A DNA stretch of 42,191 nucleotides, taken from contig JAYWGI010000096.1 in assembly GCA_043779025.1 (NCBI GenBank), forward strand, positions 1-42,191, written 5' to 3'. This document shows, piece by piece, positions 9,014-34,500 of the stretch. This DNA is from Myxococcales bacterium (lineage in GTDB: Bacteria; Myxococcota_A; Polyangia; Polyangiales; Polyangiaceae). Each line of letters opens with the position of its first letter. Position 1 is the stretch's first letter. The position numbers were made by a program, and so were the translations under genes. The notes under the pieces were generated by a model. That model did not search any database and was not told where the DNA came from. It was given only the letters and a program-made list of their open reading frames with translations.

Positions 9014-9787
9014 ATGTTGAAGTATCTAGGAGCATGTTTTGTGATTGGCGTTATGGCCTGCGGCGCCGAATCCACCGCGAGCGACGAGGATGCGCTCGCG
9101 AATGCTTGCACGGCCAAAATTACCTACTGGCAAAAGGATGCCTACAAGGATTTGGGCGGGCCCCTCACATTGGGGTGGCCTCCGCACACCACCACCTCTC
9201 TCACCGTGAGCTGCGCCGGGAAGGCTCCGCGGGCCTCATCAATGGTAAATCATAGCGATGTTCAGGTGGGGCAGAAGGACGCCAATGGTGTCGCGATCCT
9301 CACAGAGGTGTACTCCGAGAGTGTGACCGGCAGCGAAGCGCAAACAACAAGGCTCGAGCAGGCCTACCGAAACTGCGAGTGCGAGGCAGGCACGTTCTTC
9401 AGCCTGGGAAAGTTGGAGGCGGGACCCGCCTCAAAGCTTTTCGCAACGCTCAAGAGTGCGCTTGAGAGTGACATCGTGTGCACCGGCACGGGCAAGCAAG
9501 ACTTGCTCGCGGCGCTCACGGCGCAAGATGCCACCAAGGCGACCACCGCGTGGGCGAAGTGCACCGTGCCTGCTGACAAGACACAGTCGGCCTTCGAGAA
9601 GGGTCTACTCGCCGCCCAGCAGGCGCAGCAGGTCGACTTGTCGGGCTACCATGTGTGCAACAACGACGCGGCGCTGCAGGCCAAGCTGGTGCGTGACTTC
9701 AAGAGCTCGCGCACCATCGCGGCGTGCAGCAAGACCAGCACACTCTGCAAGGGCCCAGCTTTCTCCTACAACCCGAAGACGCAGTAA
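9014..9787 (+). CDS. Cys-rich secreted lipoprotein, function unknown
   Basis: 257 aa. The signal/lipobox-like N-terminus is MLKYLGACFVIGVMAC. Multiple paired Cys residues are present and I recognise no enzyme motif. Confidence 0.6.
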   Translation: MLKYLGACFVIGVMACGAESTASDEDALANACTAKITYWQKDAYKDLGGPLTLGWPPHTTTSLTVSCAGKAPRASSMVNHSDVQVGQKDANGVAILTEVYSESVTGSEAQTTRLEQAYRNCECEAGTFFSLGKLEAGPASKLFATLKSALESDIVCTGTGKQDLLAALTAQDATKATTAWAKCTVPADKTQSAFEKGLLAAQQAQQVDLSGYHVCNNDAALQAKLVRDFKSSRTIAACSKTSTLCKGPAFSYNPKTQ

Positions 9788-9810: not shown

Positions 9811-9844
9811 GGTGGGCCTCCAAGTCGTGGAGCCCCGCCTTTTT
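9811..9844 (+). terminator. probable intrinsic terminator after the lipoprotein gene
   Basis: GGTGGGCCTCCA-AGTCG-TGGAGCCCCGCC forms a stem of about 11 bp with one mismatch and one wobble. It is followed by TTTTT and lies 24 nt after the stop at 9787. Confidence 0.45.
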
Positions 9845-9904: not shown

Positions 9905-11995
9905 ATGAAAGAGCCTACCGCAGTACCTCTCGGGCCGGTGTTCTCGCTTGCCGACAATCTGCGCGGTCTTGCCACGAGCTGGACGGGAGAATGGCGCGAT
10001 GTCGTTGCGCAGAGGGCCTTTGTCGCCGACCTGCTTGCGGGCTTGACGGTTGCCGCGGTCGCGCTCCCGTTGAATCTTGCACTTGCCGTGGCGAGCGGGC
10101 TGCCCGCGAGCGCGGGGCTCGTTTCGGGGGCGATTGGTGGCGGCATCGCGGGCTTCTTTGGTGGGGCATCGTTGCAAGTCACAGGGCCAGCGGCGGCACT
10201 CTCCACCATGGTACTCGCGCTCGCCGTGGAGTTTGGTGCCGAGGGCGTGGCGGTGGCCTGTTTGGTTGTAGGGGTGGTGCAGCTTGCGATGGGCCTCTCG
10301 GGGGCCGGTCGACTCGCGAGGTACGTGCCCGAGTCCGTGCTGGCCGGATTCACGACGGGCGTTGGTCTGAAATTGCTCGATGGTCAGGTGCCCGAGTTTC
10401 TGGGCTTCAAGATCTTGGGCTTCGACCACAAGCTCATCGACATCGCAAAAATGATGCACGAGCCCAAGTGGCTGCATCATGTGTCGTGGCTCTCGGTGAC
10501 ATGTGGCTTGGCGGTCGCATTTATGGTCACCAAATTTGCAGCCTACAAGCGCTTTCCGGCCGCCATTGTAGGCATTGCGTTGGCGACATTTGTATCCGTG
10601 TACTTGGACTGGGACATCTCGCGCGTGGGTGAGGTGCCGTCTTCGCTTCCGCATCCCAGCCTCCCATCGCTGGACGACGACCGCTTGCTCGACCTTCTGG
10701 TCGCGGCCGTGCCGCTCGGTGTGCTTGCGGGCGTTGAGTCCTTGCTGTCTGCGCGCGGCGTCGACCGTATGGTGCCAACGCGCAAGGCGCACAATTCAAA
10801 CCTCGAGCTGGTTGGACAAGGCCTGGCAAACGCGGCTGTGGGACTCATGTCAGGCTTGCCGGTCAGCGGCGTCGTGGTGCGTTCTACCGTGAACGTGCAG
10901 AGCGGAGCGAAGACGCGTTTGGCGTCCATCACGCACGCGGCGCTGCTGGTCGTGGCCGTGCTGTACCTCAGCAAGTTCATTGCTCAAGTGCCCGTGGCCG
11001 CGCTGGCGGGCCTCTTAATCGTGATCGCAATTCGGCTCGTGGAGGTGCGCGAGCTTGTGCATCTTGCGAAGACCGACGTTGCGGGTGCCCTGGCCTTTGT
11101 GGTCGCCTCAGTCGGTACCCTATCGGGGCATCTTATGCTGGGCCTGGTGGGGGGGCTCGTCGTGCATCATGTAAGCGCGTATTTACGGCGCCTTGATCCT
11201 ACGACGACGCCTCGTGTGCTGCGAGAGGCGGGCAGTCAGGGCCAGGAACACGGCGTGCGAGCAACGCTCGGGCGCGCGCAGGCCCTGGCCCGCCGACCGT
11301 TGGGGCGAGGTCATGGGCCTGTGCCCGAAACCGCCAAGTGGCTGTCACAGATTCAAGGGCGCGGCTTGCGTGCGCGCAGTTCGTTTGTGCATGAGCAGGC
11401 GTCCGTCGTGGGGCGCGTGTTCATGGGCGACAACGTGCATATTGCAGCGGGTAGCTCGGTGCGTGCTGACGAGGGAACGCCATTTTTTATCGGCGCCAAC
11501 ACCAATCTACAGGACGGAGTGACCTTGCATGCGCTCAAGGACAAGACCGTGAACGTGGCCGGTGAAGCGTGGGCCATCTACATCGGACAAGATGTCTCGG
11601 TTGCGCACAACGCTTTGGTGCATGGCCCTTGTTACGTTGGCGATCGCACCTTCATTGGTTTCAAGTCCATCGTGCACGACTCGGTGGTGGGATCCGACTG
11701 CTTCATTGGGCATGGGGCGACCGTGGTGGGCGTGGAGATACCGGACGGTCGCCATGTGCCTAGCGGCCGCATCGTGGACTCCGCCGAGGCCGTGGCCAAG
11801 CTGCCGCTCGCCACGGCGCAGCAACATGAGTTCAACGAGGATGTGGTGTACGTGAACATTGGTTTGGCCGAGGCGTATCAAAAGGATCGCATCTCGCCGG
11901 CTCAGCCGGGAATGTCCGTGCAAGTGCGCAAAGATTCGCTGGCCAGCTGGGAGTCCAGCTGGGTACCGGCGCCGTTTTCGAAGGAGAGGTTCTAA
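9905..11995 (+). CDS. SulP-family anion transporter fused to a Cam-type gamma-carbonic anhydrase domain (no STAS domain)
   Basis: 696 aa. The N-terminal ~430 aa is SulP-like polytopic membrane (..GLPASAGLVSGAIGGGIAGFFGGASLQVTGPAAAL..). A linker of about 60 aa is Arg-rich. The C-terminus (nt ~11380-11992) reads VRADEGTPFFIGANTNLQDGVTLHAL...VSVAHNALVHGP...IPDGRHVPSGRIV...EDVVYVNIGLAEAYQK. This parallels Methanosarcina Cam as I recall it (IRSDEGMPIFVGDRSNVQDGVVLHAL..VSLAHQSQVHGP..IPDGRYIPAGMVV..EAVVYVNVHLAEGYKE), including the three His ligand positions. Confidence 0.85.
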   Translation: MKEPTAVPLGPVFSLADNLRGLATSWTGEWRDVVAQRAFVADLLAGLTVAAVALPLNLALAVASGLPASAGLVSGAIGGGIAGFFGGASLQVTGPAAALSTMVLALAVEFGAEGVAVACLVVGVVQLAMGLSGAGRLARYVPESVLAGFTTGVGLKLLDGQVPEFLGFKILGFDHKLIDIAKMMHEPKWLHHVSWLSVTCGLAVAFMVTKFAAYKRFPAAIVGIALATFVSVYLDWDISRVGEVPSSLPHPSLPSLDDDRLLDLLVAAVPLGVLAGVESLLSARGVDRMVPTRKAHNSNLELVGQGLANAAVGLMSGLPVSGVVVRSTVNVQSGAKTRLASITHAALLVVAVLYLSKFIAQVPVAALAGLLIVIAIRLVEVRELVHLAKTDVAGALAFVVASVGTLSGHLMLGLVGGLVVHHVSAYLRRLDPTTTPRVLREAGSQGQEHGVRATLGRAQALARRPLGRGHGPVPETAKWLSQIQGRGLRARSSFVHEQASVVGRVFMGDNVHIAAGSSVRADEGTPFFIGANTNLQDGVTLHALKDKTVNVAGEAWAIYIGQDVSVAHNALVHGPCYVGDRTFIGFKSIVHDSVVGSDCFIGHGATVVGVEIPDGRHVPSGRIVDSAEAVAKLPLATAQQHEFNEDVVYVNIGLAEAYQKDRISPAQPGMSVQVRKDSLASWESSWVPAPFSKERF

Positions 11996-12924
11996 TGGGA
12001 TTCGTAGCTTTTTTGCTCGGGTTTTTGATCTACGGTCTGTGGGTAGCGCGCGCCTGCTTCTTCCGCGTCGACGAGGGATCTCTCGCTGTGCTGACGCGGT
12101 TTGGTGCGGCCGAGTTTGTGCCCGGGACCAAGCGACTGCACACCTACGGCCCCGGGCTTCACCCCAAGGCGCCGTGGGATCGCGCGCTTCATGTCTCGAT
12201 GAAGGAGCAGAGCCTAGATCTCTCAGGCGAGCATGGCGGGCTACTTGCGATGGCAAGCGACGGCACGGTGCTCCGCTTGGACACCGTGCTTCGCTACGTG
12301 CCGGACGAGGCGGACTTGGCGCACTTCTTGTTCGGCATGAAGGACCCGCTCACGCACATCACGCGCCTGTTCTCGTGCTTGGTGCGAAACAAGATCGCCA
12401 ACTTCCGCGCCACGGATGCCGACTCCGTTCCCGAGGGCACATCCGTCCTTAGCCATGTTCGCAGCGATGGGAGCGATGGGTCTTACGCCATGATCCGCGG
12501 CGAGCGCCAGCTGCTGAGTGAGCGCATCGAATCGTTCTGTAAAGAGCACATTGGCCAGCGCTATGGCGTGCGCTTCTACGGCGTAGACATTGTCGATATC
12601 TTGGCGCCCGACGAGCTTGCCGAGGCGCTCAACGCCGTGATCAACGCCAGCAGCGAGGCGGAGCGCGCCTACTACCGCGCAGAGGCCGCCTGTCAGGCGC
12701 GCGTCGTTGGTGCGGAGGAGGGCGTGGCAATCGCAGCGATGCGTGCCAAAGCGATGCACTCGGAGATCGTTACCCTCGGAAATTTCCTTCAGGCGGAGCA
12801 TGTGCGTGGCGAACTCGCAACCTACGTGCGTCGTCGTCGCGCGGAGGTCTTCGCGGAGTCCAGAACGCTGTACGTCAAAGAATCCGTTATTCAGCACGGT
12901 ACGCGCGTAGGAGCCCCACAATGA
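11995..12924 (+). CDS. SPFH/band-7 (stomatin/HflK/C-like) membrane protein
   Basis: 309 aa. It has an N-terminal TM (FVAFLLGFLIYGLWVA) followed by VDEGSLAVLTRFG.. and an SPFH-like core, with a coiled Ala/Glu/Arg-rich C-terminus. The start overlaps the SulP stop (TAATG). Confidence 0.75.
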   Translation: MGFVAFLLGFLIYGLWVARACFFRVDEGSLAVLTRFGAAEFVPGTKRLHTYGPGLHPKAPWDRALHVSMKEQSLDLSGEHGGLLAMASDGTVLRLDTVLRYVPDEADLAHFLFGMKDPLTHITRLFSCLVRNKIANFRATDADSVPEGTSVLSHVRSDGSDGSYAMIRGERQLLSERIESFCKEHIGQRYGVRFYGVDIVDILAPDELAEALNAVINASSEAERAYYRAEAACQARVVGAEEGVAIAAMRAKAMHSEIVTLGNFLQAEHVRGELATYVRRRRAEVFAESRTLYVKESVIQHGTRVGAPQ

Positions 12925-13784
12925 GTGCGTCTTTGATGCTTTGGTTTGCGCTCGGCCTTGCGCTGGTGCCCGGGTTCGGGTTCCTGTTTCGCGCGTTGAC
13001 GGTGAGCGTCGAGGACGAAGAGGCCGTGGTCGTGACGCGCTTTGGTAAGTTGCAGCAGGTGCTTGTACGGCCCGGTTTGCACATCTTGCCAGAAAAATTG
13101 CTGCCTTGGGTGAAAGTAACACCCGTCTCGCTGCGGCGTGATTTTCGTGACTTCAATGGCGTCCACGTAAACGCCGCCAGTGGCACGACGGTGATCGTGG
13201 ACTTGTGGGTAGAGTTCCGGGTGAAGGATCCGGTGCGTGCTTTGTACGCGGTCGAGGATCGCGAGCGCGCACTCTCAAACTTGGTTGCGCACGCTGCGAC
13301 TGGGATCCTTGCAAGTTGTACCTTCGACCGAATTCTGCGTAACCGAATGGAGCTCAGCGAGCGACTTCGACTCGAGGTTCAAGCCGAAACCGAGCGCTGG
13401 GGCCTGGAGGTCGAGTTCGCTTTTGTGCGCAAAGTCAATCTGCTGCCCGATGTGTCGAGGCAGGTCATGGAATCCATCGCAGCGCGTTTGGAGCGTGCCA
13501 AAGCCGACGTTGAGGAAGCCGGTCACCTGCAGATCGCCAAACTCAACGCCCAGACCGATGGGCTCATCGCTGAGCGCATCGCAACGGCCAAGGGGCAGTA
13601 TCTGCAAGAGGTAGGACGCGGTATGGCCGCGCTCCGTGCGACACCCGAGGTGTATGCATCCTACAATGAGCTCTATGAGCTCTCGCTGCTGCACCCTCAT
13701 CGCACGGTCGCGTTTCGCGGCTTCGACTCGGGTGAGCTGCGCGCAGCCGACGCGGCGATGATGCAGTTGCCACCCACCGAGTAG
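12921..13784 (+). CDS. SPFH/band-7 domain membrane protein
   Basis: 287 aa. It has an N-terminal TM followed by VEDEEAVVVTRFGKLQQVLVRPGLHILP...VDLWVEFRVKDPVRALYAV...WGLEVEFAFVRKV, which is typical SPFH. The start overlaps the upstream stop (ATGA). Confidence 0.85.
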   Translation: MSASLMLWFALGLALVPGFGFLFRALTVSVEDEEAVVVTRFGKLQQVLVRPGLHILPEKLLPWVKVTPVSLRRDFRDFNGVHVNAASGTTVIVDLWVEFRVKDPVRALYAVEDRERALSNLVAHAATGILASCTFDRILRNRMELSERLRLEVQAETERWGLEVEFAFVRKVNLLPDVSRQVMESIAARLERAKADVEEAGHLQIAKLNAQTDGLIAERIATAKGQYLQEVGRGMAALRATPEVYASYNELYELSLLHPHRTVAFRGFDSGELRAADAAMMQLPPTE

Positions 13785-14847: not shown

Positions 14848-16584
14848 CTAAGCCGGGCCGCCACCTGCTGTGCAGTTCGCGTTGCAATTCTCTGTGCCGT
14901 CGCATTGCTCGCCACCCGCTGTTTGAAGCACGCCGTCGCCACAATATCCCCCGCGCGAGCGGCAGTCGGCGGCGCACTTACCATAAGCGGGCGTAGTGCT
15001 GGGGTCATTTCCGGCGCCTTCATCGCACGCTTCCGTACGGGTCTTGACGCTGTCGCCGCAGCGCGGTGTGCATACGGATTTGGCGCGCTCAAAGCCGCGC
15101 AGTGTGAGCTTGTAGTTGGACTCGTCGGTGTGCCGCTCCGCTTGGAATACGGCAATCTCGTAGACGCCCTTGTCGATCAATCCAAGGTCAGTACCTGCGA
15201 TTTTGCAGACATCCGTCACGGTGTTTGGCACGCCAATGCACGTCGGGTGAATTGTCACACTTTTGCTCAGCGCGCCGTGCACGCCCCCAATGTCTACAGC
15301 CAGCCGCCCGTTGACGAAGACGAATACGTCGTCGTCTCCGCTAAACTCAAGCTTCGGCGCAGGAGCGCTGGCATCGTGCGAGAACCAAAATTTTACCTCG
15401 CTCGTGAAGTGATAGTTGTAGCCCGCCAACAGCGCTTCGCGCTGAGCGGCGGGCACGCTGGCCGCAGTCCAGCCTTTGTTGGTGAGCGGAAAGAACTGGC
15501 CGGATGGGTTTGGCGTCCCGTCTGGGTTGCTCAACGCGCTGTCGAACACGTAGCTTTGGTCGGCCTGCTTTTTCAGTCGAAGGCCTCCGAGCTCCGTCTT
15601 GTTGAGCGCGTCGTCCCGGAACCACTTGGCAAACTCTGCAGGGCTCGTCAGAAGCCCTTGTGACGAGAGGAAAACGGGCTTGCCATCGCCGTCGAGTAGC
15701 CCGGCAACCATGCCCGTTGGGGACCCGCAACAAAACGCTTGGAAATCTGGGTGCCCGCTGGCAGCAAGATTTGCCGCCCCATCGCCGCGCTTAAAGTCGC
15801 GGTAGACTACAGGGAGGTCGACGAAGTCAGGCAGCGCCTGAACCTGAGTTGCACAGGTGAATCCTGCCTCTTCGGTGCAGGTCGCGCTGCAGCCGTCACC
15901 GCTGCGCGTATTGCCATCATCACAGCTTTCGGTCGGGTACTTGAGACCATCCCCGCACACGGCGCTGCAGCCGGCGCCTGCCGTGCAGACCGGCTCCTTA
16001 TGGCATGTCGGGTCGCAGCCGTCGTAGGCGCGCAGGTTGCCATCGTCACATTGTTCACCGCCCTCGGGCGTGCCGTTGCCGCAAACAGTAACCGTACACG
16101 CGGCTCCCGGAGTGACACACTGATAGCCATCTTGAAGCTTGCAGCTGGTGTCGCAACCGTCGCCTGACGCTGCGTTTCCATCGTCGCAATCCTCGTCGCC
16201 AACCCGTAGCCCGTCGCCACAACGTGCGGCATTGCATACGGCTCCGTCGATGGCGCAAATCCACCCCGTTTCGACTTCACACGTTAAGCTGCAGCCGTCG
16301 CCCCCCGTGGCGTTTCCGTCGTCGCAGCTCTCATTGCGGGAACGGCGTGAATCACCGCATACAGCCAAGACCGACCCGTCCGTGCTGGGTTGGACATTGC
16401 CGGTGTCCGCAGAGCCACTCCCGAGGATGGGGCCGGTCGCGTCGTTGCCTGAGCCGCCAGCTGCGTCTACTGGAAGTGGAAACACGTTTCCTATTTCCGT
16501 GGTTCCGCAAGCCGGACCCAGGGCGCCGGCTGCAAGCAGAGGCAACAATCCAAGGGAGCTCCAAGCAACGCGGCGTCTGTTCAT
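14848..16584 (-). CDS. secreted cysteine-rich-repeat protein with PA14/fibro-slime-type domain
   Basis: 578 aa. The signal peptide is MNRRRVAWSSLGLLPLLAAGALG. Four N-terminal CGDG..E.CDDGN...GDGC..C repeats are present. The central domain reads ..LPVVYRDF...HPDFQ...FTSEVKFWF...FSGDDDVFVFVNGRLAVDIGGVH.., which is PA14-like. Degenerate Cys repeats occur at the C-terminus. Confidence 0.85.
   Translation of the reverse strand: MNRRRVAWSSLGLLPLLAAGALGPACGTTEIGNVFPLPVDAAGGSGNDATGPILGSGSADTGNVQPSTDGSVLAVCGDSRRSRNESCDDGNATGGDGCSLTCEVETGWICAIDGAVCNAARCGDGLRVGDEDCDDGNAASGDGCDTSCKLQDGYQCVTPGAACTVTVCGNGTPEGGEQCDDGNLRAYDGCDPTCHKEPVCTAGAGCSAVCGDGLKYPTESCDDGNTRSGDGCSATCTEEAGFTCATQVQALPDFVDLPVVYRDFKRGDGAANLAASGHPDFQAFCCGSPTGMVAGLLDGDGKPVFLSSQGLLTSPAEFAKWFRDDALNKTELGGLRLKKQADQSYVFDSALSNPDGTPNPSGQFFPLTNKGWTAASVPAAQREALLAGYNYHFTSEVKFWFSHDASAPAPKLEFSGDDDVFVFVNGRLAVDIGGVHGALSKSVTIHPTCIGVPNTVTDVCKIAGTDLGLIDKGVYEIAVFQAERHTDESNYKLTLRGFERAKSVCTPRCGDSVKTRTEACDEGAGNDPSTTPAYGKCAADCRSRGGYCGDGVLQTAGGEQCDGTENCNANCTAGGGPA
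15853..16359 (-). repeat. four tandem ~35-45-aa cysteine-rich repeats (coding) in the PA14 protein gene
   Basis: Residues C76 to C244 contain four units: CGDSRRSRNESCDDGNATGGDGCSLTC.., CGDGLRVGDEDCDDGNAASGDGCDTSC.., CGNGTPEGGEQCDDGNLRAYDGCDPTC.. and CGDGLKYPTESCDDGNTRSGDGCSATC.. Confidence 0.8.
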
Positions 16585-18489: not shown

Positions 18490-20049
18490 GTGAAACTTGC
18501 ACCCCCAAGTGCATTGTTTCCTCGCCTCAACAAGCCTCACGATGCCATTCTTGCATCGGTGAGGTTTTTGACTTTTCTGGCCGTGATGGTGTGTGTGTCT
18601 TGTATGCATTCGCGCACGGATACTCCGGCCATTGGTGCGAGCGATGCGGTCGAGATGTTGCTCACCACGGAGCCCGACACGGTGGACCCGCGTTACGCGA
18701 GCGATGCGATTTCGTCGCGGGCTTCCAGGTTGATCCATGCGGGGCTCTTCAAATTGGACCCGAAGACGTTTGAGCCGGCACCTGATGTGGCTCAAAGCTG
18801 GGTGCAAGAATCGCCTACCCGCGTGCGCGTGCTTTTGCGTTCTGACGCGACCTTCCACAGCGGGGCGCCTCTGACCTGCGAGGACGTACGGGCGACGTTA
18901 TCCGCCGTGGCGTCGCCGGAGACGCGTTCGCGTGCGGGGCAGGCGTTTCGGAATATTCTGGTCACATCCTGTGTTTCTCCTCATGAAGTGCTTCTGGAGC
19001 TGCGCGCGCCCCAAGCTTCGCTCCTGGCAGACTTGTGTTTTCCCGTCTTGCGCGCCGATCAAGCGGCTGCTGCCGCGTCGGACACACAAGATGGCTTGGG
19101 TCCCTATCGCGTGCGGTCCCGCGAGCTCGGCCTTTGGACACTTGAACCTGCGTTTCCCGGGCAGCCTGGCGCGCCTACGCGCGTCGTACGCTTGCGTGCG
19201 GTAGGAGACGAAAATGCGCGCGCGCTCCGGCTCTTGTCGGGGCGTGCCGACATTGCCTCAGGCGTGCTTTCGCCCATGCTCGCAGACGCGCTCGGGCGCC
19301 GTGGCATGCGTGTGCGCGAGACCGATGGTGTAAACCTCACCTATCTGGTCGCGCGTACGGACGCCGGCCCCTCTGCCGCGCGCGGGCTTCGCAGCTACCT
19401 GCGCACGCACACGCCGCGCGCGGAGATCATTGCGGGCATGCTTGCGGGCCACGCGCGCATCGCGGAGCAGATCTTACCGCCGCGCGTGTTGGCTCTTGCC
19501 GCTGAGCCTCAGCCTGGCCAGCCCGGCCAGCTCGGCCAGCCCGTGGCGCCAACCGAGGCCGCACACATCGCAGGCGCACATGCAGAGTTGCTGGTCGGAA
19601 CCGATCGCATGCGCGTGGCCATCGCGCGCGCCATGGCAGATGAGTGGGCCAAGGGCGGCGTGACGGTCGATGTGGTCCCCCTGGACCTCGGTGTGCTCTT
19701 GGGGCGCCTTAGTCGCGGCGAGTTCATGTTCGCCATGTTGCAACTGCCGGACCTTACCGAGCCCGGCCTACTTCGCACGTTGTTGCATTCCAAATCTTTA
19801 CCGCCCTACGGCATGAATCGGAGCCGCTACGCCAATGCGCGGGTGGACGCTTGGCTGGACGCGGCCGAGAGCGAGCTCAACCTCGTGCAGCGCCGGGCGC
19901 TCTACGCTCGTGTTGAGGAAGCTAATGCGCATGACTTGGCGTTGATGCCGCTCTGGCGGGAGCAACATGTCGCCGTGGTGTCTGAGCGCGCGCTCAGCTA
20001 CGCGCCCGGCGCGGATGGACATTGGGGGGCGCTATGCGATCTTCGGTAG
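18490..20049 (+). CDS. family-5 (OppA/DppA-like) ABC solute-binding protein, orphan
   Basis: ..TEPDTVDPRYASDAISSRASRLIHAGLFKLDP.TFEPAPDVAQSW.....TRVRVLLRSDATFHSGAPLTCEDV.. is typical of SBP_bac_5. A hydrophobic signal region FLTFLAVMVCVSC is present. The start is uncertain (GTG 18490, GTG 18559 or ATG 18586). No permease or ATPase genes are adjacent. Confidence 0.75.
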   Translation: MKLAPPSALFPRLNKPHDAILASVRFLTFLAVMVCVSCMHSRTDTPAIGASDAVEMLLTTEPDTVDPRYASDAISSRASRLIHAGLFKLDPKTFEPAPDVAQSWVQESPTRVRVLLRSDATFHSGAPLTCEDVRATLSAVASPETRSRAGQAFRNILVTSCVSPHEVLLELRAPQASLLADLCFPVLRADQAAAAASDTQDGLGPYRVRSRELGLWTLEPAFPGQPGAPTRVVRLRAVGDENARALRLLSGRADIASGVLSPMLADALGRRGMRVRETDGVNLTYLVARTDAGPSAARGLRSYLRTHTPRAEIIAGMLAGHARIAEQILPPRVLALAAEPQPGQPGQLGQPVAPTEAAHIAGAHAELLVGTDRMRVAIARAMADEWAKGGVTVDVVPLDLGVLLGRLSRGEFMFAMLQLPDLTEPGLLRTLLHSKSLPPYGMNRSRYANARVDAWLDAAESELNLVQRRALYARVEEANAHDLALMPLWREQHVAVVSERALSYAPGADGHWGALCDLR

Positions 20050-21926
20050 CGCTATCGTTACTCGCTCTCTCGGGTCTCGCCCCTCGCGCGGCGCTTGCAA
20101 GTAGCGTGGCCGTAGAGCGCTTGCCCGATTTGGCGCCCAAGCGCGGTGATGGTACGCAGCGCTGCAGCGTTGAGACGGCAGTCGACGTACTGGTGCCCAA
20201 GGACTGGTTTTTTTCACGCGAAAGCAATGTGTGTGAATTGCGAACCGCAGACCGTGAGTTCATCGCTCGCCTGGTGGTGGTGCCCGCTCAAAATGTCGCG
20301 GATGCGTTTCATCAGGCCTGGGAGATGGCCTGGCCGAACCGTGGTCAGGGAGCCTATCAGGTGCAAGAGGCGCAGGACCCGGAGCCCTATGATTCCGAGA
20401 CCACACGTCATTATGTTCTAGGCTCTGGCGGCTACCGCGAGCGCGCCGTGGTTCGCATGCATGGTGCACGCGCTTCGGTGCTGTTGGTGCGCGCAAGTGA
20501 TCGCGCGTGGGGCGCCGCGGACAGGTCGAGCATTGAGTTGCTGCGAGGGATGCACGCGTGGGGCCTCAAGGAGCCTGACTTGTCGCTGACGAAACTGCGG
20601 GCGCTCTCCGAAGATGACTGGACGGCAATGAGGCGCCTTGCGGTGCGTGCTGGTCGTGCGGCGGGCGCCTCGTCCGTGTCGTATTGCGTGGTTCGTCGCG
20701 GTGCTGCCGACCATTGCGAGACGGTGGGTACCGACGCCACGCCGCGCGAGCGATTCCCCCGCTACCTGATAGGCTCGCTGAGCAAGGTGCTCAGCACGGC
20801 GGCGCTGGACCTACAGAACGAGGGTGTGTGGACGCCTGCCCAGCGCGAGGGCTTTTGCGCTTGCTCAGGTCATTCGCGTCACGACATGCCGCTGCTCATC
20901 GGCGCGCCACCAGAGCTCTTTGCGCTGCGAAGCTATGCCCTCGATACGCCTGCAATCGCGCCCGTCGGAGAGCTTTATTCTTACAACAATGCGCTTTCTG
21001 CAATCACTGCCTACGAGGCAGCCGGAGCCGCAGAGCCAGGGAAGCCACTCGCTGAGGCCTATACGGCCTGGCTGCGTACCCGTCTACTCGGGCCGCTAGA
21101 TATGCAATCTACGTTGACCGATTGGTCGCCCACAACGTGGACGTCAAGCGCGCGTCCGCATGCGCCTGACATGTCCGGTGTGGTGCATGCCTTGCCCATG
21201 CTGACGGAGAGCTTCGCGCGCAGCATCATGCCTGCCGCTGGGATCGCGTCTACCGCGCCCGACCTGGCGCGGTATCTCCGTTTCGAGCTCGCCCTTCCGT
21301 GGGCATCGTCGTCGGGCGTTGGTCTTTCGACGCGCACGCCGGCGCGCAACTTCACACTGCGCGCACCTGGCGTCTCTGTCGATAGTCGATGGTCGTATGC
21401 TCTGGGCGTTATGGTAGGATCTCTGCGCGGCGTCTATTCGGTGCAGCATACAGGGGCCACATTGGGCTTCGGATCGATGCTCACCATGTTTCCCTCCAAG
21501 GGGCTGGGTCTTGTCGTACTCACGGATGTGCAACGCGGCGCCAACGTGGGCACGGTACTGCGGGATGAGCTTTTGGCGCGTAGTTTGGGCGGGCCACACG
21601 TGGGCCCCGCCGCCTTGCGCGCGCTCGCGCCCATGGCCAAAGTCGCACCCGGCACGCGCAGCTCGGGCTCCGACGTGCTCGCGTGGGCAGGAGCGTACGA
21701 TCACCCATTGGCGGGGCGCGTCTCGCTCCTCGTGCTCGGCGACGAGGTCATGTTGCGGACCCCCGGGCAGGGGGATCTGCGTTTGGGCGTCTGGCTCGAG
21801 CAGGGCCGTTACCGCTTGTACGCGCTCGATGGACCTTTTGCCGGGCTTTTGGTCGACGTCACCGCCGACGCCCTGGCCCTGCGCGGCGCGGATGCGGTCA
21901 GCACCGTTTTCGCGCGCATACACTGA
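20034..21926 (+). CDS. beta-lactamase-fold serine hydrolase with N-terminal unknown domain, secreted
   Basis: The ATG at 20034 gives the signal peptide [22 protein letters not shown]; the track start is a TTG at 20022. An SxxK motif lies in [15 protein letters not shown]. The gene overlaps the upstream SBP gene by 16 nt. Confidence 0.75.
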
Positions 21927-22015
21927 GCGTTGGCAATTTAGGACAGCGTTGTGATACCCGGTGCGTCCGTTCATGCAGGCACTTCGCCACCGCATTCGAC
22001 ACGGAGTATTCGCCC

Positions 22016-23680
22016 ATGCCACGAAAGTCGACCAAGTACATTTTGGTAACGGGTGGTGTGGTCTCGTCCATCGGAAAGGGCCTTGCAAGTGCCGCCGTGG
22101 GCGCCCTGCTCGAAGCGCGTGGCCTCAAGATTACGCACCTTAAACTAGACCCGTACATCAACGTCGACCCCGGGACGATGAGCCCCTACCAACACGGCGA
22201 AGTATTCGTCACCGACGACGGCGCCGAGACGGATTTGGACTTGGGGCACTACGAGCGATTCACGTCGGCCGTGCTGACACGCGCGAACAACATTACCAGC
22301 GGCAGAGTCTACCAAGCGGTCATTCAGAAAGAACGACGAGGCGAATACCTGGGTGCCACGGTACAAGTCATTCCTCACGTGACCGACGAAGTGAAGGCTC
22401 GTATCCACGCCGCGACCGCGGGCGCCGACGTGGCCATCCTTGAGGTTGGGGGCACCGTGGGAGACATCGAGTCGCTGCCGTTTCTCGAGGCGTTGCGACA
22501 ACTTAAGATCGAGCTCGGACCCTCAAACGCCATCAGCATGCACGTCACTTTGGTGCCGTACATCGAGACGGCCGGCGAGCTCAAGACGAAGCCCACACAG
22601 CATTCCGTCAAGGAAATGCGAGGCATTGGTATCCAGCCAGACGTGCTCCTGTGTAGAAGCAAAGAGGCGCTTACGGCGTCGACCAAAGCGAAGATTTCCT
22701 TGTTCTCCAACGTGCCAGTGGAGGCAGTGATCTCCGCAGTGGATGTAGGATGCATCTACGAACTGCCCCAGAAGTTGCATGATGAGGGATTAGACGCGCT
22801 GCTCTGCGAGCGCCTCAACATCTGGTCTAGGCAGCCAGATCTGTCGGCGTGGTCGCGGGTGGTTGAGCGCTTCAAGCGCCCCAGTGATCCCGTGGTGCGC
22901 ATTGGTGTGGTGGGCAAGTACGTGAACCTCAAGGACGCGTACAAATCTCTTCACGAGGCGCTCGTCCACGGGAGTCTCTCGGTAGGGCGCAGGGTTGAGC
23001 TGGAGTACATCGACTCCGAGGAAGTGGAGCGCCAAGGCGCGGACTCCTTGCTCTCCCATCTGGATGGCGTGCTGGTCCCAGGGGGCTTTGGCGATCGCGG
23101 GACCGAGGGAAAGATCTCGTCGATTCAGTATGCGCGCACCAACGCGATCCCCTTCTTCGGTATTTGCTTGGGCATGCAGATGGCCGTGGTGGAGTACGGC
23201 CGCAACGTTGCGGGCCTCGCGGGGGCCCACTCCAGTGAGTTCGTACAGGGCCTCAGACACCCCGTTGTCGATCTGATGGACGGCCAGAAAGACGTCGATG
23301 GAAAAGGCGGCACAATGCGACTAGGCGCGTTCCCGTGCGCGCTTAAGCCTGGCACGCGGGCCTTTGAGGCATATGGCATGGCGGACATCTCCGAGAGGCA
23401 TCGCCACCGGTACGAGGTCAACAACGCCTATCGCCCGCAGCTTGAACAAGCGGGCCTTACGTTCTCGGGCGTCTCGCCTGATGGCGCACTGGTGGAGATG
23501 GTTGAGCTCGCCGGGCACCCCTACTTTGTGGCGTGTCAGTTTCACCCGGAGTTCAAGAGCAAGCCGCTGGCACCGCATCCATTGTTTGTACACTTCGTCA
23601 AAGCGGCCACGGAGCGCAGCGATTTGCGGAAGCGCTTGGCCTCCGAGGCCAAGAAGAGCAGTACGGCCGTCTCGGTGTAG
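22016..23680 (+). CDS. pyrG: CTP synthase
   Basis: The start is [22 protein letters not shown] at ATG 22016. Other matches are ..[25 protein letters not shown].., the glutaminase GICLGMQ, and HRHRYEVN. The track ORF start at 21683 is a spurious 5' extension. Confidence 0.95.
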
Positions 23681-31561: not shown

Positions 31562-34500
31562 TTGAGAATTCCCGTTCGTTATAGGCTGTTGAAACCCTTG
31601 GGTTCGGGCGGCGCAGGTAGCGTGTGGTCGGTGCAAGATCGGGTGACGGGAGAGCGGCTGGCGCTCAAGCTTGTTCATGAAGGCGCGTCTGTGGGCGAGC
31701 TCGACGCATTGGTCCGAGAGGCAAGCGCGCTTGCAGCACTGTCACAAGCTGGGCTGCCCGGTGTGCGGGCCATCGGTCTTTTGCCGGGTACCCATCGTCG
31801 CTACCTGGTGCGCGAATTGGTTGAGGGGATCAGTTTGGACGATGTGCTCGAAAGCGACTTGCCTTGGCTGGGCGCATTCCTTTCCGCGTGCGATCAGCTT
31901 GCGCTGCTTCATCGTGCCGGGTCGCTTCACGGGGACATCAAGCCCGCCAACGTCATTGTGTCCAAGAGTGGCAGGGGGTGCCTTGTGGACTTGGGGCTCT
32001 CGGCGCCTCTCACACTTGGGGGCACACGAACGTTGGGGCTTACCCCGCGTTTTGCGGCGCCCGAGCTGCTCGAGGGCGAGCGCCTAACCGTGCGTGCCGA
32101 GGTCTATTCGGTGGGGGCAACGTTGCGCGATTGTGTCGCGCGACGCGGAGATGAACTGCGCGAGGATTTGCGCCTTGGCCTCACCCGAGCGGTGAACCGC
32201 GCGATCTCCTTGCAGCCGGCTGCGCGTCACCCGTCGGTAGACGAATTTCTTGCCGAAATTGCGGCCGTTCCGGGCGTCGAGTTGCCTGCGCGCTCGCGGG
32301 CGCTGGTTTGGCGCGTGGACGGAATTTCCGACACGGTACGTGGAATCGCCGACAGCGTACGGGCGCTGCAGCACGGACAAATACTTGGGATGTGGGGCCC
32401 CACAGGAAGCGGTCGCAGCACGCTCGGGCGCGAGCTTGCGTGGAGCTTCGCCGCCGGCGGAGAGGACGTGGTTCATATCGTCCCCGCTGTGGACCAGCGC
32501 GCGGAATTGCAGTCGCTTGGGGCCAAAGTCTTGGCGATTTATGCGGAGGAACTTGCGGCACGCCCCGATGCCGTGCTGGTTGTGGACGACTTCGATCGCT
32601 TGAGCGAAGAGTCGCGCATGGCCTTACTCGCGCTGCAAGAGGCGAAGCATCGCGCGGTGCTTGTTGGGCATGATGCGCATGCTTTTGGGGGTCTAGAGAT
32701 TGCAGCCCACTACGAGGTTCAGCCGCTGAGCATCGCGAGCCAAGAGTCCCTCGTTCGTACGGCCATCCCTTCGGCCTCACGCACGGCCGTCCTGGCGATA
32801 GTGGACCATGCAAAGGGGAGGCCCGGAGCGCTACGCGAGCTGGTGGAGCGCTGCGCAGGGAGTGCGATGGTGAGCCGTGGTGATGTTGAGCGAGCCAAGT
32901 TTGGTGCGGCGACGCACGGCACCCAAGACTGGAACGAGGTGCTGCGTTCGGCGCTCAACTCAGGCCGTTTCGCCGCGGCGCGCGTGGCGCTACAGGAGCT
33001 CGAAAAAGGAGCCGCGACGGCGCATGCTTTTGAGCGCTGCCTAGGTGAGGTGCGGGTGCGCATTGCGCAGGGCGACAACGAAGGGGCTGGTATGTGGTTG
33101 GGGCGCGCCGAGGCAGCGGGCGCAAGTCGCCACGAGCGTGTAGAAGTGCACTTGTATCGAGCGCGCTTGATGCTGCGAAGTGGCGACTATGACGGGATTG
33201 AGCCTGTGCTTTCGAGCGCCGTTTCGCTGGGTGAAGCCACCTTCGAGCTGCGCGTCGTGGCCGCGCTGGCACAAGCCATGGCGCGCCCTACTCTGCAAAA
33301 CGTTGCCGTGTTGCATGCGCTGCATCGTGACATGTCGCCCGAGCAAGGGCCGCGTGCTCGCGCCATCGCAGCAGGTTCGCTCGCCATCGCGGAGCAGCGT
33401 GCAGGGGATACCGAAGCCGCGCGCGCGCACTATGCTGAAGCGGTTGTGAACGCTGAAGAAGCGGGCGACGGCTGGGTCCTATGTTCAACTTACGTGAACA
33501 GTGCCGGCCTTGCGCACGTGGCAGGTCAAATGGTCGATGCGCTGCGCCTCTGTGAAGCCGCCATCGACCTTGCCGAACGTTTGGGTGCCGATTTGGCGGC
33601 GTATACGGCGACCCTAAACTTGATCGCTTTCAATCTTCAGCTGGGACGCTATGAGCGAGCGGCAAAAAGTATCGGCTCGCTCGAGGACTACGATCTCTCG
33701 CCCTACGCCGACGCGCAATTGTACGGCCTGCGTGCGGAGCTATTGGAGCGTGGCCTCAATTGGGACGAGGCAAGTGTAAACTACACTCAATGCGCCGAAC
33801 GCTTCCGTGCCATCGGTATGCATGCCGACGCCTGCGAAGCGGAGCTCAACTTGCTTTCGTGCGATACCGCACGGGCGCAGATCGCAAACTCAGATTTGGA
33901 GCGCCGTCTCGAGGCGTTGCGTTTGACCTCTGAAGAGGCGGGCGCGACAGAGATTCAGTCCCTGTGGAATTACGTGGCTGCTCGTGTGATGCGCCGCGTG
34001 CGGGGGCCGCACGAAGGGCTCGCCGCCTACTTGACGGCTGCAGATGTGGCGCGAAAGTCGTCTTCGAAGGAGCTGCTTTGGCAAGCATTGCAGGGCGTTG
34101 CCGAGGCGCATCGTGACTTAGGGGCGCCTGCGCTGGGGCATCGCGCGGCCACCGAGGCGCTCGAAGTATTGGAGGCGATTGCGTTGCCGTTGCCGCGAGA
34201 CCTCTGTGAGGTGTTCTGGAATGACGTGCGCCGATCGGAATTGCGTGGTCTTGCGGCCTCTCCCTCGCTTGGGGGCGTGTCCGTGGGGGCGCCCACCGTG
34301 GGGGCGGCATCGTCGATGGCCATGCAGCACTTGATCCAAAGCGCGCGTGCGTTGGTTCGAGTGCACGACCCCGAGCGAGTACTGCATGACACCTTAGAAC
34401 ACGCCGTAGCGATCGTCGGCGGTGTGCGGGGCATGCTCTACTACCGCGACCCGTTGGGCCGCCCCGCATGGGTGACGCCTTACAACTTTGAACCCGCGCA

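Follow-up and report, generated by a model that had tools for sequence, protein, structure and literature searches.

A C-terminal STAS domain is typical of the SulP/SLC26 family (TC 2.A.53) but not universal. To our knowledge, SPFH/stomatin/HflKC cages have been seen by cryo-EM across life, few of them with a defined client and fewer still with one dictated by an operon. In the account given in PMC6458275, STAS-less SulP genes located beside, or fused to, a beta-class carbonic anhydrase (CA) are predicted to encode bicarbonate carriers (Felce & Saier 2004). Our literature search returned only such beta-CA fusions or unrelated papers and no published gamma-CA–SulP fusion or SPFH–SulP link, in agreement with the original prediction that a SulP transporter ending in a gamma-class CA had not been characterised.

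The window, i.e., the whole stretch of 42,191 nt that was analysed (Myxococcales bacterium, GCA_043779025.1, contig JAYWGI010000096.1), encodes such a protein. Its CA is gamma rather than beta, and the fusion must therefore have arisen independently; it represents a second, independent origin of the CA-on-SulP design, now with a trimeric enzyme.

The SulP–gamma-CA fusion protein

The features of the fusion gene, with the evidence on which each is based, are the following:

9905..11995, + strand: SulP–gamma-CA fusion gene (ORF list, domain matches, 120 full-length homologues at 56-68 % identity)
9947..10012, + strand: N-terminal cytoplasmic helix, aa 15-36, with a conserved W-x3-W-(R/K)-D-V motif (AF2 pLDDT >90)
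10019..11200, + strand: SulP/SLC26 membrane domain (transport and scaffold), aa ~39-432 (PF00916, AF2, Foldseek)
11201..11335, + strand: basic linker at the STAS position, aa ~433-477 (no STAS match, length in 120 homologues, AF2)
11336..11893, + strand: gamma-CA domain of the Cam/CcmM clade, aa ~478-663 (Cam/CcmM alignment, invariant residues, AF2)
11528-11530, 11606-11608 and 11621-11623, + strand: metal ligands H542, H568 and H573 (residue-level Cam alignment)
11894..11992, + strand: disordered C-terminal tail with a conserved W-x2-3-W and a terminal RF-COOH (pLDDT <50, homologue ends)

According to the ORF list, the gene encodes 696 aa, from an ATG start to a TAA stop at 11993-11995, and an independent gene call on another contig gives identical boundaries. 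The SulP core spans aa ~11-432, with the Sulfate_transp family (PF00916) matched at aa 39-400 (E 5e-67, 226.6 bits against a Pfam cut-off of 23.2). In the AF2 model, aa 11-430 have pLDDT >90 and adopt the 14-TM, 7+7 inverted-repeat fold of the family. Foldseek gives the BicA transmembrane domain (6ki1, TM-score 0.86) as the best match, together with SLC26Dg (0.87), SULTR4;1 and prestin, and BicA is also the PDB sequence match (E 2e-43), which confirms the SulP-like character assigned to the membrane domain at the outset. In the N-terminal helix, W30 is at least 90 % conserved in the homologue alignment, and the W-x3-W-(R/K)-D-V motif is visible in the N-termini of the homologues.

The anion site is formed by Glu278, Ser282, Val324 and Arg326, where BicA has the Na+ triad D258/T262/T302. 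Conservative substitutions thus affect two of the Na+ ligands (E278, S282) and the third is missing (V324); Arg326 occupies the position of a BicA glycine and resembles that of sulfate and other SLC26 carriers. Glu278 (TM8) and Arg326 (TM10) are invariant in the family. The score against the NCBIfam BicA equivalog (NF050096) is 161 bits compared to a cut-off of 880, and the protein lies far under the equivalog cut-offs of NCBIfam for BicA, DauA and Cam alike. The site thus gives no specific pointer to bicarbonate, which is suggested by the fusion rather than by the transporter sequence.

The original prediction held that some 60 Arg-rich residues separate the membrane and CA domains, leaving no room for a STAS domain. 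Both statements are borne out. Between the last hydrophobic segment, which ends at aa ~432, and the start of the Cam alignment at aa 490/491 there are 58 aa, including 9 Arg and 1 Lys; depending on the boundary used, the linker is about 45-58 aa long, and it measures 48-58 aa across the 120 homologues. It consists of a helix (aa 434-448), a conserved G450-x-R452-A453 and a coil, with pLDDT <50 for aa 447-506. No Pfam match to STAS (PF01740/PF13466) is found in the protein even at E<=1, and PF01740 is listed in none of the 120 homologues. A cryptic STAS fold in the linker is thus excluded by the profile searches, by the linker length and by the AF2 model, which has one helix followed by low-confidence coil. 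STAS is indeed absent, but the claim that it was replaced by the CA is too simple, because two relatives (P0130 and P0138) have the architecture SulP–STAS–gamma-CA. Probably, then, the CA was appended to SulP first and STAS was lost later.

We give a negligible probability to the alternative that a STAS-less SulP gene and a gamma-CA gene, separate in reality, were joined through an error of sequencing or assembly; nothing was found in its favour. The single ORF recurs in no fewer than 120 protein clusters, drawn from NCBI, JGI, ENA and Logan assemblies, and a contig scan with the family alignment located it in 80 species-level genomes. Among these are the isolates Labilithrix luteola DSM 27648 and Cystobacter fuscus Cbf 10, both with complete chromosomes, and 5 independent contigs encode exactly the same protein. 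This conservation refutes the frameshift objection, and we take the fusion as genuine. The carriers are predatory soil and water bacteria belonging to the Myxococcota, with Labilithrix luteola and Cystobacter fuscus among them, and to a few Bdellovibrionota. In P0126, this CA module is attached to DUF1275, a membrane domain of unrelated type.

The CA domain matches the NCBIfam CcmM N-domain (aa 491-661, E 2e-52) and Cam-type CA (aa 491-660, E 3e-49) models, Pfam Hexapep/LbH at aa 558-625, and in the PDB both Cam (1qrg/1thj) and CcmM (3kwc) with E of ~1e-41 to 1e-42. Acyltransferase-type left-handed beta-helix (LbH) proteins (PaaY, CaiE, LpxD, GlmU, CysE) were considered and rejected, with 15-47 bits as compared to 168-178 bits for the Cam/CcmM models. 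The left-handed beta-helix strands and the C-terminal helix (aa 640-663) are visible in the AF2 monomer model, where the pLDDT of the domain is only 50-78. At the residue level, Cam R59, D61, E62, N73, Q75, D76 and H81 correspond to R520, D522, E523, N534, Q536, D537 and H542, and Cam H117, H122 and N202 to H568, H573 and N651. These residues lie in part in the motifs RADEG (R520, D522, E523), VTLHALK (H542), VAHNALVHGP (H568, H573) and VVYVNIGLAEAYQ (N651). The full-length LbH domain, its Cam metal histidines and its C-terminal helix, to which VVYVNIGLAEAYQ had been assigned, were thus all correctly recognised beforehand. The three metal His, and with them seven further residues of Cam catalysis, do not vary among the 120 homologues, which are only 56-68 % identical overall; this argues for selection on catalysis and not on the fold alone, and the domain is predicted to be catalytically competent.

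The same alignment shows that RADEG had been mislabelled as the acidic loop. It holds the counterparts of Cam Arg59, Asp61 and Glu62, while the true acidic loop (Cam residues ~84-93, terminology of PMC9389205) is missing through a 10-residue deletion, and Lys545 stands at the position of Glu84, which is Lys in 115 of the 120 homologues. The acidic loop and the proton shuttle Glu84 that mark the Cam subclass sensu stricto are therefore both absent, as they are in the active TeCcmM (PMC9389205). Of the proposed Cam-type gamma-CA there remains a complete, long-type enzyme with intact metal and catalytic residues, which by its sequence is CcmM-like rather than strictly of the Cam subclass. The likeness is confined to the CcmM N-terminal domain: the CcmM scaffold model (NCBIfam NF053794) gives 178.5 bits compared to a cut-off of 550, and the match extends over no more than positions 24-195 of its 320. 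A CcmM-like Cys194-Cys200 redox switch was ruled out, as the window sequence contains no Cys after the C-terminal helix. The protein ends instead in a 33-aa tail, with a C-terminal RF in 110 of the 120 homologues and a terminal F in 118.

The downstream SPFH gene pair

A pair of SPFH genes is conserved directly downstream of the fusion gene. This is a new finding, absent from the original prediction. The corresponding features are:

11981..11989, + strand: Shine-Dalgarno-like AAGGAGAGG within the 3' end of the fusion gene (direct sequence reading)
11995..12924, + strand: SPFH-A, HflC-like Band 7 protein, 309 aa (PF01145, HflC profile, AF2, Foldseek)
12921..13784, + strand: SPFH-B, HflK/stomatin-like Band 7 protein, 287 aa (PF01145, 87.4 bits)

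The SPFH-A ATG, 6 nt downstream of AAGGAGAGG, overlaps the stop codon of the fusion gene (TAATG), and the start of SPFH-B overlaps the SPFH-A stop (ATGA). The three genes form an operon in the order SulP–gamma-CA, SPFH-A, SPFH-B, a tight one as judged by the two overlaps and the internal Shine-Dalgarno sequence. A promoter and terminator scan gave matches no more numerous than in shuffled sequence.

The SPFH-A family profile matches HflC in the PDB (E 3e-14). Its AF2 model, built on an alignment of database homologues, has a pLDDT of 88.7 with HflC (7vhq_G) as the top Foldseek match, and consists of a TM segment (2-20), the SPFH domain (22-203) and two helices of 65 and 29 aa (206-270 and 274-302). 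SPFH-B matches stomatin, HflK and QmcA with E of ~4e-9, and NCBIfam hflK with E 3e-13, under the cut-off. The two proteins are paralogous (hhalign probability 97 %). They have the makings of an HflK/HflC-type pair, i.e., adjacent paralogous PF01145 genes with, from the SPFH-A model, a TM segment and long helices; at the HflK/HflC equivalog level the scores (22.9/21.4 and 49.9 bits) stay far below the cut-offs (159.4/134.4). No FtsH is present among the window neighbours scanned.

SPFH-A followed by SPFH-B is found downstream, on the same strand, at all 78 loci with downstream sequence (median spacers of 12 nt and -4 nt), and the reciprocal search, from the SPFH pair to the fusion gene, succeeds in 3 out of 3 cases. 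Downstream of a relative that retains STAS (L081) and of a divergent SulP–gamma-CA (L084/L085) the pair is found as well; the SulP–STAS–gamma-CA relative P0138 has no SPFH neighbours. Across the 78 loci no other neighbour is conserved. The alanine racemase, the PRPP synthetase-like protein, YaeQ, a 257-aa protein, the CvfB-like protein, the DUF4215 protein and the sigma factor were therefore discarded as cassette partners, their adjacency to the cassette not being conserved. The RF tail was likewise rejected as a strict SPFH docking signal: P0132 lacks the tail and yet has an SPFH-A-like start downstream, so that the link between tail and SPFH is not a strict one.

No Lys or Arg precedes the SPFH-A TM segment in any of 69 orthologues, and about two follow it. 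By the positive-inside rule, the basis used here, this charge pattern predicts that the SPFH domains, like the CA, lie on the cytoplasmic side.

Proposed function and alternative readings

The locus suggests an uncharacterised bicarbonate-handling membrane machine. The best reading, to which we assign a probability of roughly 55 %, is a bicarbonate transport metabolon within an SPFH scaffold, with putative substrate, direction and activity. An elevator-type SulP/SLC26 anion carrier would bear the gamma-CA on a short basic cytoplasmic tether. The active sites of gamma-CAs lie between adjacent subunits, so that three chains would have to assemble through their CA domains, placing the CA trimer directly beneath the cytoplasm-facing openings of the transporters. 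In this position it would interconvert CO2 and HCO3- (+H+) where bicarbonate passes and erase the local gradient, carrier and enzyme forming a covalent "transport metabolon". The HflC-like/HflK-like pair may build a ring-like or cage-like SPFH structure that confines or stabilises the assembly in a membrane patch. In support of this reading, among solved structures the bicarbonate transporter BicA comes closest to the membrane domain, and SPFH-A has the build (TM, SPFH domain, long helix) of cage-forming SPFH proteins. We infer bicarbonate from the fusion to a CA, and trimerisation of the CA and its physical association with the SPFH proteins are likewise presumed.

Predation and amino-acid catabolism with release of ammonia are known traits of Myxococcota and Bdellovibrionota, as is carbonate mineral precipitation of myxobacteria. 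As to direction, an outward route, in which metabolic CO2 is hydrated and HCO3- exported while H+ is retained, is favoured only weakly, little better than evenly, over HCO3- uptake; it would serve amino-acid-catabolising predators as a pH-stat.

Placing a trimeric CA on a transporter that is normally a dimer creates a symmetry mismatch without a known solution. It is possible, but doubtful, that the 3-fold CA and the 2-fold SulP together assemble the transporter–enzyme units into hexamers or a small honeycomb array inside a cytoplasmic HflC/HflK-like cage, creating a nano-compartment in the membrane where CO2/HCO3- would be converted and exported or imported. In such an arrangement the RF-COOH tail might be the docking peptide. 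If true, this would be a bacterial, operon-encoded counterpart of AE1–CAII–stomatin and a new class of SPFH-cage client.

Two other readings compete with the metabolon. The gamma-CA could be a regulatory or oligomerisation module in the role of STAS, sensing CO2/HCO3- or trimerising the carrier and so gating a transporter of another anion (sulfate, dicarboxylate, chloride), with catalysis incidental. The Glu278 and Arg326 site, closer to AtSULTR4;1, prestin and SLC26Dg than to BicA, is consistent with this, as is the occurrence of the same CA on DUF1275 (P0126), which suggests a portable accessory domain. Scaffold-only gamma-CA homologues, however, typically lose catalytic residues, and here all Cam catalytic residues except the dispensable Glu84 are invariant in 120 diverged sequences. 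Non-catalytic gamma-CA scaffolds do exist elsewhere, such as some cyanobacterial CcmM and plant complex I gamma-CA subunits (PDB matches; activity differences, PMC8000050), but the independent joining or adjacency of beta-CA to STAS-less SulP argues for a link through the substrate, and we consider a regulatory module unlikely.

We regard as similarly improbable a pmf- or Na+-driven bicarbonate importer, on the model put forward for BicA and the beta-CA fusions, in which the CA dehydrates HCO3- to supply CO2 or to consume cytoplasmic H+ (acid tolerance) and the SPFH proteins are general quality-control or stability factors. A TM8 acidic residue is tied to cation or proton coupling in SULTR4;1, and also in BicA, the closest solved structure; Glu278, the invariant TM8 acid, fits this picture, and the published predictions on SulP–CA pairs speak of uptake (PMC6458275). 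Against it, these bacteria are predators living as aerobic heterotrophs, for which a CO2-concentrating step has no evident use; HCO3- taken up in symport with H+ and then dehydrated amounts to no more than CO2 entry; and the strict reciprocal SPFH linkage exceeds a generic chaperone relation.

Under the metabolon reading, the cassette would represent a system for the handling of inorganic carbon or pH, as yet unstudied, in Myxococcota and Bdellovibrionota. It couples an SPFH scaffold with a single assayable client, and its trimeric CA on a dimeric carrier provides a test of how far SLC26 oligomerisation depends on STAS.

Comparison with known systems

The SulP–beta-CA fusions, the can2-sulP pairs and the clade C SulP of Acidithiobacillus ferrooxidans, as described in PMC6458275, share with the present protein a STAS-less SulP combined with a CA, predicted to form a bicarbonate couple. 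The beta-class partner (dimer/tetramer) of the Felce & Saier 2004-type pairs is here a gamma-CA, a left-handed beta-helix and obligate trimer, which introduces a 3-fold/2-fold mismatch; in addition, an SPFH gene pair is attached and the taxa are Myxococcota and Bdellovibrionota. BicA (6ki1) is the best match in both sequence and fold, with 30 % identity, but has STAS and the Na+ site D258/T262/T302, whereas the window protein has E278/S282/V324, an extra Arg326 and no STAS.

With Cam of Methanosarcina thermophila and the CcmM N-domain of Thermosynechococcus (3kwc), the CA domain shares ~45 % identity over 170 aa, the three metal His, Arg59, Asp61, Glu62, Asn73, Gln75, Asp76, Asn202 and the C-terminal helix. 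It differs from Cam, as CcmM does, in lacking the acidic loop and in having Lys545 for Glu84, and from CcmM in lacking the Rubisco-small-subunit-like repeats and the Cys pair after the C-terminal helix; unlike both, it is tethered to the membrane and is neither soluble nor part of a carboxysome.

HflK/C face the periplasm. The SPFH pair resembles the E. coli HflK/HflC–FtsH cage (7vhp, 7wi3, 9cz1) in its two adjacent paralogous genes and in the succession of TM segment, SPFH domain and long coiled coil, a build characteristic of cages around a membrane client, but its presumed client is a transporter–enzyme fusion, no FtsH is nearby, and its SPFH domains are predicted to be cytoplasmic rather than periplasmic.

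The closest analogue in terms of how the system would work is the erythrocyte AE1 (band 3)–CAII–stomatin system (PMC5383999; bioRxiv 10.1101/2025.08.30.673307), which combines a 7+7 inverted-repeat anion carrier, a CA at the cytoplasmic face and a Band 7/SPFH protein in the control of HCO3- flux. That assembly is non-covalent, eukaryotic and unrelated in sequence (SLC4, alpha-CA), whereas in the bacterial cassette the CA is fused to the carrier and the HflC/HflK-like SPFH pair is encoded in the same operon.

Domain architecture of the SulP-gammaCA fusion

The gene at the center of this analysis encodes a protein of 696 aa from an ATG start, its boundaries being exactly as originally predicted, and the same protein was obtained from an independent gene call in another assembly. 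It is followed by two Band 7 genes, with which it forms a three-gene cassette.

Features of the window (coordinates, strand, description)
9014-9787, +, 257-aa Cys-containing protein, just upstream of the cassette
9905-11995, +, SulP transporter fused to a gamma-class carbonic anhydrase domain (gammaCA)
11995-12924, +, SPFH-A, HflC-like Band 7/SPFH protein, overlapping the next gene by ATGA
12921-13784, +, SPFH-B, HflK/stomatin-like Band 7/SPFH protein, starting within the end of SPFH-A (ATGA)
14848-16584, -, 577-aa protein with repeated Cys-rich DUF4215 modules (Pfam)
21683-23680, +, CTP synthase ORF as listed, GTG start
31562-35860, +, 1432-aa Ser/Thr-kinase and sigma54-activator fusion (Pfam domains)

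In the Pfam scan of the fusion protein, Sulfate_transp covers aa 39-400 (E 5e-67) and hexapeptide/LbH repeats are matched at aa 558-625. The NCBIfam models for the N-terminal gammaCA domain of CcmM (E 2e-52) and for Cam-type carbonic anhydrase (E 3e-49) match in the region of aa 491-661. An acyltransferase-type LbH identity of the C-terminal domain was rejected, the NCBIfam scores being merely 15-47 bits. Hits among solved structures are the BicA membrane domain (6ki1, E 2e-43) for the N-terminal part and Cam (1qrg, 1thj) and CcmM (3kwc), both at E ~1e-42, for the C-terminal part. The proposed SulP-like membrane domain is thus supported, and all the motifs quoted in the original prediction are found in the protein.

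The full-length monomer model calculated with AlphaFold2 from a 120-sequence alignment has a pLDDT above 90 for aa 11-430. According to Foldseek, the nearest fold of the membrane domain is BicA (TM-score 0.86), followed by SLC26Dg, SULTR4;1, and prestin. The pLDDT of the CA domain is merely 50-78 in this monomer model, and its assignment therefore rests on sequence. A C-terminal helix (640-663) is followed by a disordered tail, which carries a conserved W-x2-3-W ... RF-COOH motif (window 11894-11992; RF end in 110 of the 120 homologues). The N-terminal helix (window 9947-10012) has a W-x3-W-(R/K)-D-V motif resembling that of the tail.

The prediction that about 60 Arg-rich residues leave no room for a STAS domain is upheld. 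Between ~aa 432, where the last hydrophobic segment ends, and aa 490/491, where the alignment to Cam begins, lies a spacer of 58 residues with 9 Arg, 1 Lys, and 3 acidic ones; across the 120-sequence family it measures 48-58 aa (median 51). In the model, a single helix (434-448) and a low-confidence coil lead from the membrane domain to the beta-helix strands. A cryptic STAS domain in the linker was looked for and is absent: no STAS family of Pfam matches the protein even at E<=1, and the full-length model contains no alpha/beta STAS-like fold.

The best 120 database matches all have the SulP + LbH architecture (658-743 aa, 92-100 % coverage), with a STAS domain listed in none of them. Relatives are encoded in 256 genomes, sampled at one genome per species, and the best 80 of these all cover both domains; the fusion can therefore not be a frameshift artefact. 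Labilithrix luteola DSM 27648 and Cystobacter fuscus Cbf 10, both with complete chromosomes, are among these 80. Of the best 80 genomes, 76 carry Myxococcota labels or old or doubtful higher-rank names ("Deltaproteobacteria", "Pseudomonadota"), and four belong to Bdellovibrionota (Bacteriovoracaceae, Pseudobdellovibrionaceae, Oligoflexus). The sequences are public and generically annotated, only as "SulP family inorganic anion transporter", "sulfate permease", or "hypothetical". SulP-CA fusions with beta-CA have reportedly been known since 2004. A full-text literature search covering part of the journals turned up only these and no description of a gamma-CA-SulP fusion or of any SulP-SPFH link, in line with the expectation that the protein had not been characterised.

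Carbonic anhydrase active site

In the HMMER alignment to Cam (mature numbering), R59, D61, and E62 correspond to R520, D522, and E523; N73, Q75, and D76 to N534, Q536, and D537; H81, H117, and H122 to H542, H568, and H573; and N202 to N651. All ten residues are invariant among the 120 aligned homologues, whose identity to the window protein is only 56-68 %. The RADEG segment, originally taken for the acidic loop, is indeed present but is the Arg59/Asp61/Glu62 segment, a different part of the protein; at the true acidic loop the alignment to Cam shows a 10-residue gap. The position of the proton shuttle Glu84 is occupied by Lys545, with Lys in 115 of the 120 family members. The acidic loop defines the Cam subclass, and TeCcmM, which lacks Glu84 and the loop in the same pattern, is catalytically active; Glu84 is not conserved in further active gamma-CAs either (PMC9389205). 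These losses are therefore no argument against activity. From its sequence, the domain is best described as a CcmM-like member of the Cam/CcmM clade. It is not CcmM itself, because the Rubisco-small-subunit-like repeats and a cysteine pair after the C-terminal helix are missing.

The SPFH gene pair, genomic surroundings, and variant architectures

At the junction of the fusion gene and SPFH-A, the stop codon TAA and the ATG overlap (TAATG), and AAGGAGAGG lies 6 nt upstream of this ATG. When ten window proteins were compared with 80 related loci by tblastn, SPFH-A and then SPFH-B were found directly 3' of the fusion gene on the same strand in 78 loci, the sequence of the other two stopping at the fusion gene, while none of the seven other neighbours tested was conserved. 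The median spacers are 12 nt (fusion/SPFH-A) and -4 nt (SPFH-A/SPFH-B). SPFH-A belongs to a small family of 273 clusters (E<=1e-5). In a reciprocal check of three SPFH-A homologues from long contigs, each was flanked by a SulP-gammaCA gene on one side and a second Band 7 gene on the other.

The SPFH-A orthologue profile matches HflC in HflK/C cage structures (E 3e-14). SPFH-B is nearest to stomatin, HflK, and QmcA (E ~4e-9), and NCBIfam hflK matches it at E 3e-13, far below the cut-off; hhalign (probability 97 %) identifies SPFH-A and SPFH-B as distant paralogues. The SPFH-A model (pLDDT 88.7) consists of an N-terminal TM helix, the SPFH domain, a 65-residue helix, and a second helix, with HflC, prohibitin, stomatin, HflK, erlin, QmcA, and flotillin, all cage-forming SPFH proteins, as best fold matches. 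No Lys/Arg precedes the TM helix in any of 69 SPFH-A orthologues and about two follow it; SPFH-B shows a similar trend (none before the TM in 49 of 67). On the positive-inside rule, these flanking charges predict an N-out/C-in topology, in which the SPFH domains, like the CA domain, would face the cytoplasm. This is the orientation of QmcA and the opposite of that of HflK/C.

The surroundings are ordinary high-GC chromosome (~62 % GC) with housekeeping genes (alanine racemase, PRPP synthetase-like, CTP synthase, poly(A) polymerase-like, ABC exporters), and no signs of mobile elements around the cassette were found in the window. The 257-aa protein has no Pfam/NCBIfam match and is not conserved beside the cassette in related loci. 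Its gene is followed at 9814-9844 by a terminator-like hairpin, read by eye as GGGCCTCCA-agtcg-TGGAGCCCC and then gccTTTTT; the terminator scan made no call there. In the related loci L088 (453-1805, -) and L090 (463-1818, -), a divergent gene for an FHA + sigma-54 activator protein lies upstream of the cassette and may be a lineage-specific regulator; the matching position in the window has no such gene. The 1432-aa protein comprises an N-terminal Ser/Thr kinase, an AAA/TPR middle, a sigma-54 activator AAA+, and a Fis-type HTH. In the listed CTP synthase ORF, about 117 codons separate the GTG from the first residue matched by Pfam, and the ORF overlaps the preceding beta-lactamase-family ORF (20022-21926). 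The true start is probably further downstream.

The CA module (aa 435-696) also served as the query for a search of 1.8 billion cluster representatives, from which selected matches were scanned with Pfam. P0130 (775 aa) has the order SulP + STAS + gammaCA; its CA is 53 % and its membrane domain 33 % identical to the window protein, and the membrane site is of the BicA-like D/T/T type. P0138 (846 aa) has the same order. P0129 is a divergent SulP-gammaCA without STAS. Two Band 7 genes follow P0130 and P0129 on the 3' side, an SPFH-A-like start follows P0132, and there are none at the P0138 locus. In P0126 (locus L083), a DUF1275 (YoaK-like) membrane domain carries the same gamma-CA type (57 % identity). 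P0126 ends in ...ARF, and its contig ends before its neighbours. Among the variants compared, the CA modules are 43-57 % alike, versus 27-37 % for the membrane domains carrying them, and an RF-COOH end is common to many of the modules; a strict tie between the RF tail and the SPFH pair is ruled out by the P0132 locus. In P0121 (824 aa) and P0122 (828 aa), three to four tandem Cam-type gamma-CA domains per chain may form single-chain pseudo-trimers.

The original prediction that STAS was replaced thus holds for the end state, a SulP-gammaCA without STAS, but the event itself is questioned by the SulP + STAS + gammaCA relatives. These suggest a gain of gamma-CA on the C-terminal side of STAS in at least some lineages, followed by loss of STAS in the window's family. 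Alternatively, the CA module may have moved between carriers.

Oligomeric state, substrate, and transport direction

In SLC26/SulP proteins both termini and the STAS domain are cytoplasmic, and the CA domain is therefore cytoplasmic as well, with which the Arg-rich linker is consistent. The gamma-CA active site lies between subunits (in Cam, H81 and H122 from one chain and H117 from the next), so that CA activity needs a trimer. STAS normally adds to SLC26 dimerisation. The SLC26 cores themselves dimerise via TM13/14 (bioRxiv 10.1101/2022.06.08.495363). Lacking STAS, the window protein must assemble as a trimer of carriers joined through their CA domains, as a hexamer (3x2), or as an open lattice. 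This trimer-on-dimer problem and the obligate SPFH pair would be the features surprising to a specialist.

The reading with the best support is a covalent metabolon for bicarbonate transport: at the carrier's inner mouth the CA domain would equilibrate CO2 with HCO3-, and the transporter-CA assembly would be corralled or stabilised by the HflC/HflK-like pair. Bicarbonate is inferred as the substrate because the carrier is fused to a CA and because STAS-less SulP genes adjoining or fused with beta-CA set a precedent (PMC6458275); this inference does not draw on the binding site. The Na+ ligands of BicA, D258/T262/T302 (bioRxiv 10.1101/2022.06.08.495363), correspond to E278/S282/V324 in the window protein. 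Arg326 in TM10, invariant across the family, is shared with SULTR4;1 and prestin, whereas BicA has Gly and SLC26Dg Gln at this site. As to direction, H+/HCO3- symport followed by dehydration would amount merely to CO2 entry. If metabolic CO2 were hydrated first and the HCO3- then released by electrogenic or exchange-type efflux, protons would be retained, a situation suited to predators that catabolise amino acids and release ammonia; it is this direction that we weakly favour.

Compared with the SulP-beta-CA fusions, in which the CA is dimeric or tetrameric, the symmetry problem is peculiar to the gamma-CA fusion. The nearest functional analogue of the proposed metabolon is the association of AE1, CAII, and stomatin in the erythrocyte (PMC5383999; bioRxiv 10.1101/2025.08.30.673307).
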